A DNA stretch of 34,772 nt from a virus. Its lineage: Duplodnaviria; Caudoviricetes. Below the pieces are notes generated by a model. That model did no database searches, had not been told where the DNA came from, and saw only the letters and a list, made by a program, of their open reading frames with translations. Shown here one piece after another: positions 13,016 through 31,187 of this stretch. The DNA is taken from positions 1 through 34,772 of IMG/VR virus record IMGVR_UViG_3300020045_009801. One strand, given 5' to 3'. The position numbers and the translations under genes were made by a program. The first letter of the stretch is position 1. Every line of letters begins with the position of its first letter.

Positions 13016-13693
13016 TTATAACTTTTCTACATCGCAAAGCATCATCCACCAGTACGCTGCATATAACTCAACATCAATCACACTCCTCAAGCTACTTTCA
13101 AGTTTTAATGGGGATGAATGAACCATAAGCAATACCCTGTCATCTTCCTCCCAAATCATTGGAACGTTTCGTTTTTTAAGAAGTGATACCGGTAGCTTCT
13201 CGGGCAGAATGAATACATCCCATTTATCTGAAATCTTTTTAGTTTCAGAATAAGCTAATGCTGTTTTAACTTCCAGAACTGCCTTAAATAATACATATCC
13301 ATTTATCGGGCAAATATCTCCATTTCTTCTTCTGGCAAGTAAATGATGATAATCTATCTTTAAATACTTCTTACCAGAACAGCACAGAACAGCACAGCCT
13401 TCTATTACATGAGCAGACCAGAATACTTCATCGCCAATTTCAATTTCGAGTTCAGTTTTATAGTCGAAATTTCCAGGATAAATCGACTTAGGCAGTGCCG
13501 ATACTATTCCTGATCTGGGCATAAAATCTGATACTGAATATCCCTTTGTGTCAGACCATGCATCTTCTGAAAATGCAGATTTAGCGATAATTCCAGATTC
13601 TGTTTTGAATTCAAATGAGGTATCTTGTATTTCTACGAAGACGTGATTGTTTAATGGGCGTCCAAGGCTGGGTATTAGCAATTCATTTCTCAT
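13016..13693 (-). CDS. GroES-like protein, probably two tandem Cpn10-like units
   Basis: RPLNNHVFVE...KTESGII...G.V...EIEIGDEVF, then a second PINGYVLF...EDDRVL unit. Confidence 0.7.
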   Translation of the reverse strand: MRNELLIPSLGRPLNNHVFVEIQDTSFEFKTESGIIAKSAFSEDAWSDTKGYSVSDFMPRSGIVSALPKSIYPGNFDYKTELEIEIGDEVFWSAHVIEGCAVLCCSGKKYLKIDYHHLLARRRNGDICPINGYVLFKAVLEVKTALAYSETKKISDKWDVFILPEKLPVSLLKKRNVPMIWEEDDRVLLMVHSSPLKLESSLRSVIDVELYAAYWWMMLCDVEKL

Positions 13694-14271
13694 CTTTTTG
13701 TCATTTCGATAAAGTGATCAATATTTGCGATGATATAATCCTCGCTCCAAACTTTAGTGTTTTTAAACTCTTCGCCACAATCACATTCTGTTAAAAACAA
13801 ATTACCACAATTCGAACAAATAAAGGTATAGCCATCCTCTAATACCGAATTTTTAATTTGTGAGATTAGCCCATAGCCTTCATTTCCAAATTCTCCGGTA
13901 GTGCATATCTCGGCGACTAACGATTTTGCATCGCTTTTAATAATCTTTACGTCGAGTTTTTTATACTCAGACACTCTTGGATTAACAGGAAATTCTTCTT
14001 CTATCTGAATTAAACTATCCTGATGAACCAAATGACTTCCATTCACTTCAACGATAACTGCATCTTTCATATACAGAACAGTTTCTCCAACCTCTACTTC
14101 CATTGGAACTTCAGCAGTAGCTCCACCGGTTTGTTTTACTACTCCTTCGATTGGAGTATTTGATCTCGAAACTGCTCCGGCAGGAATGATAATTCCAGAT
14201 GGGAGTACTTTCTCTTTATTAGATTCGCTTTTTGGCTCCACTAAGAGTAACAATGATTTTATTTTTCTCAT
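13690..14271 (-). CDS. GroES-like co-chaperonin with C-terminal Cys-rich extension
   Basis: LLVEP...EKVLPSGIIIP...EGVV...PMEVEVGETVLY; C-terminal CSNC..CDC. Confidence 0.75.
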   Translation of the reverse strand: MRKIKSLLLLVEPKSESNKEKVLPSGIIIPAGAVSRSNTPIEGVVKQTGGATAEVPMEVEVGETVLYMKDAVIVEVNGSHLVHQDSLIQIEEEFPVNPRVSEYKKLDVKIIKSDAKSLVAEICTTGEFGNEGYGLISQIKNSVLEDGYTFICSNCGNLFLTECDCGEEFKNTKVWSEDYIIANIDHFIEMTKR

Positions 14272-30302: not shown

Positions 30303-30565
30303 GTCCCACTACCTAAGTCAGTGCAGTGATTCTGTCCTTTTATTTCGTACCCTTAGGATCGGGCTTTGTGATTGGCTAACCGATCAAAGTATGCCAACCT
30401 GATTTGTTGAAATTTTAAATGCATTTAGTCGTAGCGGATAGATTTTACCATCCTGCTTCTGAGTTTTAAATTACTAGCGCATAACTAACTTCTCCTTTCT
30501 ATTCGTGTTAAAAACTTCTTAGTGCCTGGAAACCCCCGACTTATTTCAGATCGAGGGTTCAAGTT

Positions 30566-30719
30566 TAGATGTGCGGAAATGAGTTTCGGTTTAAGACTCC
30601 GGCCCACTTTCTGTCAAAGAGTGTAGTTTGAGATTTCCTGTTTGGTTTAGTTATCAGGAATCCCCATTTAGTGACAATTGTAACTGTCTGTATAATTACT
30701 ACCACTTCTGGCACATCTA
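30566..30719 (-). ncRNA. Putative ~155-nt multi-stem structured RNA
   Basis: Closing stem UAGAUGUGC/GCACAUCUA encloses four or five hairpins; G:U pairs favour the minus strand. Confidence 0.5.
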
Positions 30720-30766: not shown

Positions 30767-30904
30767 GCCCCTAACGTTAGGGCGACCCGTCCAACTACGC
30801 TGCTACTTTAGCTTCGCTATTGAAAAGTGAAATTGTTTTGCCTGTTACGGCTTGTCGCTCTCTTCTATCCATACTATCTGCCAGTCAAACCTAAAGTCTC
30901 CCCC
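30767..30904 (-). ncRNA. ssrA: Permuted tmRNA, coding piece
   Basis: Begins GGGGGAGAC...GGUUUGAC; P2 strands; tag ORF; terminal hairpin GCCCUAACGUUAGGGGC (3' end approximate). Confidence 0.88.
30795..30842 (-). other. tmRNA tag reading frame (A)GKTISLFNSEAKVAA*
   Basis: UAACA then GGC resume codon; ends in AA-stop. Confidence 0.85.
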
Positions 30905-30907
30905 CGA

Positions 30908-30986
30908 TGGTGCGCGGTCGGATTTTAACCGAACCTTGGCCGTAATTATTTATCTTCGATGGCCCTATTCTTCAGAACTTCCGCAC
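30908..30986 (-). ncRNA. tRNA-like element with encoded CCA inside the tmRNA intervening sequence
   Basis: GUGCGG/CCGCGC-A-CCA; D-like GUUC/GAAU; GGCC/GGCC stem with 19-nt loop; UCGG-UUAAAAU-CCGA. Confidence 0.65.
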
Positions 30987-31039
30987 TTTTTTTTGACAGT
31001 ACTAACGCGACTGGTTAGCGATCAATTGGCGAATCGATG

Positions 31040-31100
31040 TGGAGGAGGTCGGATCTGCCCCGACGTGTTGACAGTTTCAAAATAGCCTCAATGAACGACT
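31040..31100 (-). ncRNA. ssrA: Permuted tmRNA, acceptor piece
   Basis: T arm GUCGG-GGCAGAU-CCGAC, then CUCCUCC-A pairing with GGGGGAG including G3:U70; CCA not encoded; 5' end approximate. Confidence 0.88.
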
Positions 31101-31103
31101 CAA

Positions 31104-31135
31104 CAAAGATCGGAATAAATAAATATATATACAAA
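31104..31135 (-). promoter_or_regulatory. Promoter for the tmRNA locus, TTTG-N20-GATCTTTG
   Basis: One mismatch to consensus; directly upstream of the acceptor piece. Confidence 0.55.
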
Positions 31136-31152
31136 TTATTTGCCCATTATTT

Positions 31153-31187
31153 TAAAACAAAAATGCCCCTGAATTACCAGAGGCATT
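31153..31187 (-). terminator. Intrinsic terminator
   Basis: aatgcc-c-ctg / cag-a-ggcatt hairpin followed by a U-tract on the minus strand. Confidence 0.7.

Follow-up and report, generated by a model that had tools for sequence, protein, structure and literature searches.

The window, i.e., the whole stretch of DNA analysed, is an entire virus record of 34.8 kb with an estimated completeness of 57%. Portal, terminase, helicase, and SSB genes were recognized on the contig with PHROGs. The terminase matched 85 phage records, 84 of which were Flavobacterium, Cellulophaga, or Maribacter phages, with about 25% identity among the 40 matches listed; a single-sequence terminase search gave no matches. 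The host of the phage is likely a member of Bacteroidota. The original prediction had named the same host, and it is supported by the terminase matches and by permuted tmRNA copies in Bacteroidota MAGs. No smpB gene was detected on this 57% complete contig. A pair of neighbouring ORFs (13016-14271, minus strand) resembled GroES-like co-chaperonin by eye and had no PHROG match.

The tmRNA gene is placed in a 1.2-kb non-coding stretch, with a small ORF on one side and the SSB gene on the other. The features of the locus are as follows.

31162..31187, minus strand: terminator-like hairpin closing the upstream gene
31104..31135, minus strand: putative Bacteroidota-type promoter, i.e., TTTG at 31135-31132, a 20-nt spacer, and GATCTTTG at 31111-31104
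31040..31103, minus strand: acceptor piece (5' end approximate) with P2 3' strands, T arm, acceptor strand, and A73
31099-93, 31085-81, and 31074-69, minus strand: P2 3' strands in the acceptor piece
31064-31048, minus strand: T arm GUCGG-GGCAGAU-CCGAC, 5-bp stem and 7-nt loop
31047-31041, minus strand: acceptor 3' strand, with A73 at 31040
30905..31039, minus strand: spacer of 135 nt, predicted to be removed; its ends match the strain swaps
31021..31038, minus strand: small hairpin with UCGCCA loop, directly ahead of the pseudoknot, by eye
30996..31020, minus strand: conserved H-type pseudoknot of 25 nt, from pattern searches and covariation
31020-18 with 31008-06, minus strand: pseudoknot stem 1 (3 bp), crossing stem 2
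31013-10 with 31000-30997, minus strand: pseudoknot stem 2 (4 bp); loops of 4, 1, and 5 nt
30908..30986, minus strand: cloverleaf-like predicted fold within the spacer, with ACCA at its end; fold only, z -0.28
30904 to about 30760/30762, minus strand: coding piece with acceptor 5' strand (30904-30898), D loop, and P2 5' strands
30795..30842, minus strand: tag reading frame, resume codon GGC, GKTISLFNSEAKVAA-stop
30789-30762, minus strand: 3' hairpin at the end of the coding piece

The locus holds a tmRNA gene in circularly permuted form, which is a kind already known and annotated. The tRNA-like domain has its 3' half upstream and its 5' half downstream, separated by a spacer, which is the arrangement of a permuted tmRNA. 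The original prediction of a two-piece permuted tmRNA was confirmed, and all the elements it named were located on the minus strand. The acceptor stem has 7/7 pairs, with G3 (30902):U70 (31043) and A73; the three inter-piece helices, i.e., P2, which stands in for the anticodon arm, occur where they had been predicted; and the tag frame is open from 30842 to 30795, encodes GKTISLFNSEAKVAA, and ends with AA before the stop. The T arm is also present, but its start had been placed wrongly by one nucleotide, i.e., at 31063 instead of 31064. A promoter-like site behind a terminator had been proposed as well, and a hairpin at 31187-31162 followed by a promoter candidate at 31135-31104 was found. The Bacteroidota -7 box, which we take to have the consensus TAnnTTTG, differs from GATCTTTG by one mismatch. 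Of 51 relatives, 17 have a TAnnTT[T/C]G box in the interval 50-100 nt ahead of the acceptor strand, against 2 in a control interval.

Several elements depart from common forms. The T loop GGCAGAU is alpha-consensus-like and not of the TPsiC form, and CCA is not encoded, as A73 is followed by CAU. The distance from G1 to the resume codon is 62 nt, compared with 89-102 nt in host genes, so that the coding piece has no room for pseudoknot 1. The cloverleaf-like fold in the spacer (30908..30986) is possibly a decayed tRNA, as modelled from its predicted fold; it had no tRNA call by ARAGORN or Rfam and was not conserved in relatives.

Further elements were seen in the neighbourhood. Between the tmRNA and the SSB gene, approximately 700 nt (30760-30062, minus strand) are non-coding and contain several hairpins. 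Blocks 30441-30529 and 30627-30701 of this interval are missing from related contigs, and the hairpin near 30556-30519 was also found directly behind the tmRNA in two other loci, L058 and L137. A tRNA-like element at 30305-30229 (minus strand) has a 7-bp acceptor-type stem and a perfect T arm with a TTCGAGT loop. Its discriminator position is U, a long interrupted stem replaces the D and anticodon arms in the predicted fold, and it had no ARAGORN or Rfam call.

The two tmRNA pieces were compared with shuffled sequences. When co-folded, the pieces formed the acceptor stem and the T arm as well as each of the three P2 helices. Inter-piece binding was -23.3 kcal/mol against -9.5 +/- 3.5 for shuffles, and 1/500 shuffles was equally good; for P2 alone, 2/200 shuffles were as good as the P2 of the window. 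Among relatives, P2 was better than 95% of shuffles in just 31/52. The fold of the entire 371-nt precursor was no better than shuffles (z -0.22).

ARAGORN did not call the window tmRNA. Rfam RF04321 matched it with 28.8 bits (E 0.0027) and a long spacer insert, which is below the gathering cut-off of 47, a database threshold and not a functional feature. The alpha, beta, and cyano models (RF01849, RF01850, and RF01851) gave no match to the window, and on relatives they scored 26-51 bits against cut-offs of 50 and 84. BLASTN of the window gene against 50,697 phage records matched nothing, and the exact T-arm pattern had no match in IMG/VR. A coding-piece pattern gave a lone match inside a gene, which was taken as chance.

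A family of related genes was found through a spacer stretch conserved between the window and a syntenic relative, on which search patterns were built. These patterns retrieved 32, 70, and 37 loci in IMG/VR, where the sets of 32 and 70 include chance matches lacking half the motif, and 60 loci in metagenomes. In 185,579 species genomes there were three matches, all in Bacteroidota MAGs. The set at that stage had 66 unique motif copies; 55 of them could be parsed as permuted tmRNA genes, with spacers of 42-308 nt. RF04321 scored above its cut-off in 17 of the 19 motif-bearing relatives scanned. Among ten terminase relatives of the window phage, which are mostly fragments, one (64% terminase identity) had a convincing RF04321 match in syntenic position, and the sole complete genome had none.

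All 7/7 acceptor pairs were present in each of the 55 parsed relatives (the parsing script required at least 6/7), and positions 5-7 covary in many ways. An open tag frame is present in 52/55 relatives. The resume codon is GGC in 42 and GAC in 10 of these 52, and the tags end with AA, VA, or AV, endings that the script partly selected. The distance from G1 to the resume codon is 45-75 nt across the family, against 89-102 in hosts. The T loop begins with GGC in 6/55 relatives; this alpha-like form is sporadic and does not point to an alpha origin.

One-piece ssrA was found in 38/41 Bacteroidota genomes. A 675-kb contig of a Paludibacter MAG carries both a one-piece host ssrA and a permuted gene beside a portal gene; otherwise, the permuted gene was not found in 151 Bacteroidota genomes. 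The region of the permuted gene on this contig (G011:C2, ~555000-615000, L240-L242) is an apparent prophage that includes portal and methyltransferase genes; its permuted tmRNA is 325 kb away from the ssrA of the host. In four other phage loci (L197, L201, L220, and L221), tmRNA-like genes have their resume codon preceded by a longer region, and the 230 nt upstream of them showed no acceptor piece.

The most unusual part of the locus, the pseudoknot in the spacer, had been overlooked in the original prediction. A total of 75 unique copies were collected, each of them within a tmRNA spacer as judged by script (68) or by eye (7), with 3 of the latter cut by contig ends; these counts are sequences and not independent events. 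Two pairs were left free in the search patterns. Pair 1:15 is Watson-Crick in 74/75 copies (CG 44, AU 22, GC 7, UA 1) and pair 9:23 in 75/75 (CG 51, AU 9, GC 8, UA 7). Pair 3:13 is CG in 62, UA in 8, UG in 5, and CA in none, and pair 11:21 is C-G in one variant that came from a different pattern. In 52 aligned copies, 4/7 pairs change on both sides, and the invariance of the remaining positions was partly imposed by the patterns. Covariation was 0.383; shuffled controls gave 0.099, and slid controls did not exceed 0.049. A simple hairpin for the same motif was rejected because it showed no covariation (0.041, equal to shuffles); one of its pairs was broken in 21/51. The pseudoknot is almost certainly a real conserved structure. 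Partial motif matches outside tmRNA genes (L071 and L088) lacked the 5' stem, had been chosen by a 3'-half pattern, and were assigned to chance.

The pseudoknot starts at least 14 nt behind A73 in the family, with a median of 18 and a distance of 19 nt in the window. A GYCA lies at most 22 nt before the motif in 34/55 relatives, as counted without a chance control. In one relative (L187), where a tRNA-Met is inserted, the pseudoknot comes after it with similar spacing. No Rfam family matches the pseudoknot. In host chromosomes, matches with up to two mismatches occurred in 30 of a sample of 401 Bacteroidota genomes, below the reversed-pattern control, and the only exact match among the 401 was the prophage copy.

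The pseudoknot is dispensable for the gene and optional in the family. A coding-piece pattern blind to the spacer retrieved 43 loci, including 19 unique permuted genes by script, 7 of them with the pseudoknot. Together with one irregular gene bearing a variant, 8/20 independently found relatives carry it and 12/20 do not. It is absent from six annotated or examined Bacteroidota-phage copies in GenBank/RefSeq, and the spacer of a cyanophage permuted tmRNA is just a few bases long.

The limits of gene and spacer are marked independently by closely related strains. In contigs from four runs of one study, probably DNA, the acceptor piece shows 0 differences over 92 nt, but exactly at the 30904/31039 ends the spacer has been exchanged for a different one of 196 or 43 nt. 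One related contig lacks the entire gene, with 30753 joined to 31104.

Other spacers of the family carry different contents. The spacers of L184 (530-600) and L187 (543-612) contain tRNA-Met by Rfam tRNA matches. A tRNA with CAT anticodon was seen inside the spacer of four genes in all, i.e., these two and, by eye, L057 and L208. In L189, L209, and L228, another small candidate pseudoknot, distinct from the first and with an A-rich loop 3, was noted by eye, and in the L190 spacer a candidate pseudoknot lies within a long stalk. Further shared structured modules of 85-140 nt occur in the L193 and L212 spacers and in the L190 group. In the syntenic relative, the spacer (L021:1185-1255) has a multi-stem continuation with a GAAA-capped hairpin and no Rfam call; this hairpin resembles the c-di-GMP-I/GA motif.

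Permuted tmRNAs of phages have been reported before, and the tmRNA call by itself is ordinary. PMC11915505 describes three bacterial permuted clades, 79 phage sequences, and a tRNA inside one spacer, and PMC9004378 gives 53 phage two-piece tmRNA calls. Among the latter, its Table S1 lists ARAGORN permuted calls in 13 crAss-like phages and Cellulophaga phi4:1, and PMC13120357 names the tmRNA of MA9V-3. Compared with Rfam RF04321 and its relatives (alpha RF01849, beta RF01850, and cyano RF01851; PMC11915505), the window gene has the same piece order, G3:U70, A73, and tag frame. It differs from RF04321 in its Bacteroidota phage, in having just 62 nt between G1 and resume codon, in its sub-cut-off score, and in the conserved pseudoknot of its spacer, a region that the model takes to be unstructured. 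The closest described genes are the annotated Bacteroidota-phage copies of crAss-like cr52_1, cr114_1, and cr7_1, Chryseobacterium MA9V-3, and Maribacter Panino, and the unannotated copy of cr53_1. These six share the compact layout, the extended P2, a mostly Gly resume codon, and tags ending in Ala; unlike the window gene, they lack the spacer pseudoknot, and the window copy has no BLASTN match to them.

The pseudoknot was compared with two kinds of known small RNA. Like ToxI and pseudo-ToxI (PMC3401426 and PMC3475682), it is a compact H-type knot with 3-4-bp stems within a longer transcript, and its geometry agrees with ToxI, i.e., 3-4-bp stems, a first loop of 3-4 nt, a middle loop of 1-2, and a third of up to 7. 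ToxI is defined by a tandem array upstream of toxN; the window pseudoknot is a single copy without direct repeat, and no toxN-like family was found among the 43 window proteins by PHROGs. It differs from ToxI in having neither a repeat array nor a toxin gene beside it, and in having no Rfam match. Theta ribozymes, i.e., minimal HDV-like ribozymes (PMC10879173), are likewise small structured RNAs of Bacteroidota phages that follow a tRNA-like 3' end without CCA, but their fold and position are different. They show a nested double pseudoknot with cleavage at most 5 nt from the tRNA 3' end; here, a single knot was seen by eye at a distance of at least 14 nt. HDV/theta, twister, pistol, and hammerhead folds did not fit by eye and had no Rfam match.

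In mostly open-access literature, we found no paper that describes a conserved spacer pseudoknot or this lineage as such; Table S2 of PMC11915505 may contain permuted genes from Bacteroidota. The motif and taxon names were not found in the supplement of PMC11915505, where the text available is incomplete and the alignment rows are gapped, so that their absence shows little. The pseudoknot is apparently undescribed, and the type of tmRNA gene itself is not new. The original claim of a little-described lineage holds in part: no paper analysing it as a lineage was found, but copies were already listed and annotated.

The origin of the family was considered from sequence comparisons. Independent permutation from host ssrA is suggested by a FastTree phylogeny in which 8/8 Bacteroidia-type host ssrA genes nest among the phage genes (support 0.92 from 88 columns, weak; the tree set holds no alpha-type reference). 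The commonest D-loop/P2 words of the family, TTTGACAGC (24/55) and GTTTGGAC (27/55), match Bacteroidia-type hosts, as does the GGC resume codon (42/52). These points speak against a family borrowed from beta- or cyano-type permuted lineages instead of being newly permuted from Bacteroidia one-piece ssrA, which we regard as rather unlikely. For such borrowing, part of the P2 signature also occurs in the permuted genes of Alcaligenes, Stenotrophomonas, and Synechococcus phages, and beta_tmRNA is the most frequent older-model match. The mean identity is 0.61 to Bacteroidia-type hosts and 0.58-0.60 to those three phage genes; overall, the mean values are close (0.61 vs 0.55-0.60). The Alcaligenes and Stenotrophomonas phage genes also fall inside the same clade, which takes in two other hosts besides these two proteobacterial phage genes. 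For the original view of an independent lineage, these comparisons are suggestive, and an independent permutation is likely.

The gene very probably encodes a functional tmRNA, judging from its sequence. From what is known of tRNA and tmRNA biology, the gene would give one transcript that is cleaved into two pieces held together by base pairing. Host RNase P would cut before 30904 (G1), and the spacer would then hang as a 3' trailer, whose removal, together with CCA addition, should precede charging by AlaRS. The charged tmRNA would likely rescue stalled ribosomes with host SmpB, and the tag AGKTISLFNSEAKVAA would direct the products to proteolysis. The pseudoknot, 19 nt behind A73, may stall exonucleolytic trimming or bind a factor, so that charging would wait for an endonucleolytic cut. 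The reading as a whole, i.e., a working permuted tmRNA that uses host SmpB and whose pseudoknot gates maturation of the acceptor piece, is given about an even chance. Against it, the pseudoknot is optional, spacers hold other evident cargo, and P2 exceeds 95% of shuffles in just 31/52 relatives. The window copy has also diverged, with a non-canonical T loop, a sub-cut-off Rfam score, and an ARAGORN miss.

The same three traits, together with the related contig from which the gene is wholly missing, could indicate that the window gene is decaying or is an SmpB-titrating inhibitor of host trans-translation; a precedent (PMC4131195) is an RNA of phage DS6A that consists of the tRNA-like domain only and inhibits tmRNA. 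This is very improbable, since all stems are intact, the tag frame is open and ends with AA, and the acceptor piece is unchanged among close strains (0 differences/92 nt) despite different spacers; GGC-type T loops also recur in 6/55 intact relatives. 

For the pseudoknot, a role in cis in maturation has roughly balanced chances. It is favoured because the pseudoknot was never seen outside spacers and lies downstream of the discriminator at a distance of at least 14 nt (median 18), because it follows the tRNA-Met of L187 at similar spacing, and because it would sit in a trailer that needs removal before charging. A related proposal, by analogy, is that the spacer is opened by the pseudoknot and the upstream hairpin acting together as a small self-cleaving ribozyme or as a switch sensing a ligand. 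The unpaired bases of the pseudoknot are conserved, theta ribozymes occur mostly in Bacteroidota phages adjoining CCA-less tRNAs (PMC10879173), and a glutamine riboswitch lies in the ssrA of Melnitz (PMC9004378). This proposal is improbable, because a single 25-nt pseudoknot does not by eye contain the nested double pseudoknot of HDV, it begins at least 14 nt from the 3' end against at most 5 nt for theta ribozymes, and no Rfam ribozyme or riboswitch matched.

The main rival to a role in cis is that the spacer serves as a cargo bay, from which processing frees the pseudoknot as a stable trans-acting small RNA, e.g., a decoy for a defence nuclease or a mimic of a type III antitoxin. Since the pseudoknot is optional and spacers carry cargo such as tRNA-Met, a released small RNA retains some probability, well below even. 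It would account for spacers swapped at exact ends among close strains and for other contents, i.e., tRNA-Met in L184/L187 and structured modules in L190 and L189/L209/L228. The geometry of 3- and 4-bp stems with 4/1/5-nt loops fits the ToxI group I pattern in PMC3401426, loop words are common to the pseudoknot and the B. thuringiensis ToxI repeat of its supplement (by eye, without a statistic), and pseudo-ToxI mimicry by a phage is a precedent (PMC3475682). Against release in trans, 0/75 copies lie outside a tmRNA spacer, and the pseudoknot is single-copy with no Rfam ToxI match. In addition, no ToxN, the only type III toxin family searched, scored above cut-off in 401 Bacteroidota genomes, and the motif in host chromosomes is not above the reversed-pattern control and does not occur as repeats.

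A broader proposal joins these parts, i.e., that Bacteroidota phages permuted host ssrA independently of the three known lineages, that the excised spacer is an exchangeable cassette, and that the pseudoknot is a new functional RNA class, acting as a maturation switch or ribozyme or as a released nuclease decoy. It is tentative, and we hold it somewhat less probable than its negation. A covarying and sequence-constrained pseudoknot confined to the spacers of dozens of unrelated phage contigs indicates that something selects on it. The spacer of permuted tmRNAs is treated as disposable. The pseudoknot is small enough for direct synthesis and for tests of cleavage, nuclease blocking, and ligand or protein binding. 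The family may represent a further origin of the two-piece tmRNA form. With approximately 210 nt and no room for pseudoknot 1, it is also a natural minimal tmRNA, in which it can be asked which parts trans-translation needs.
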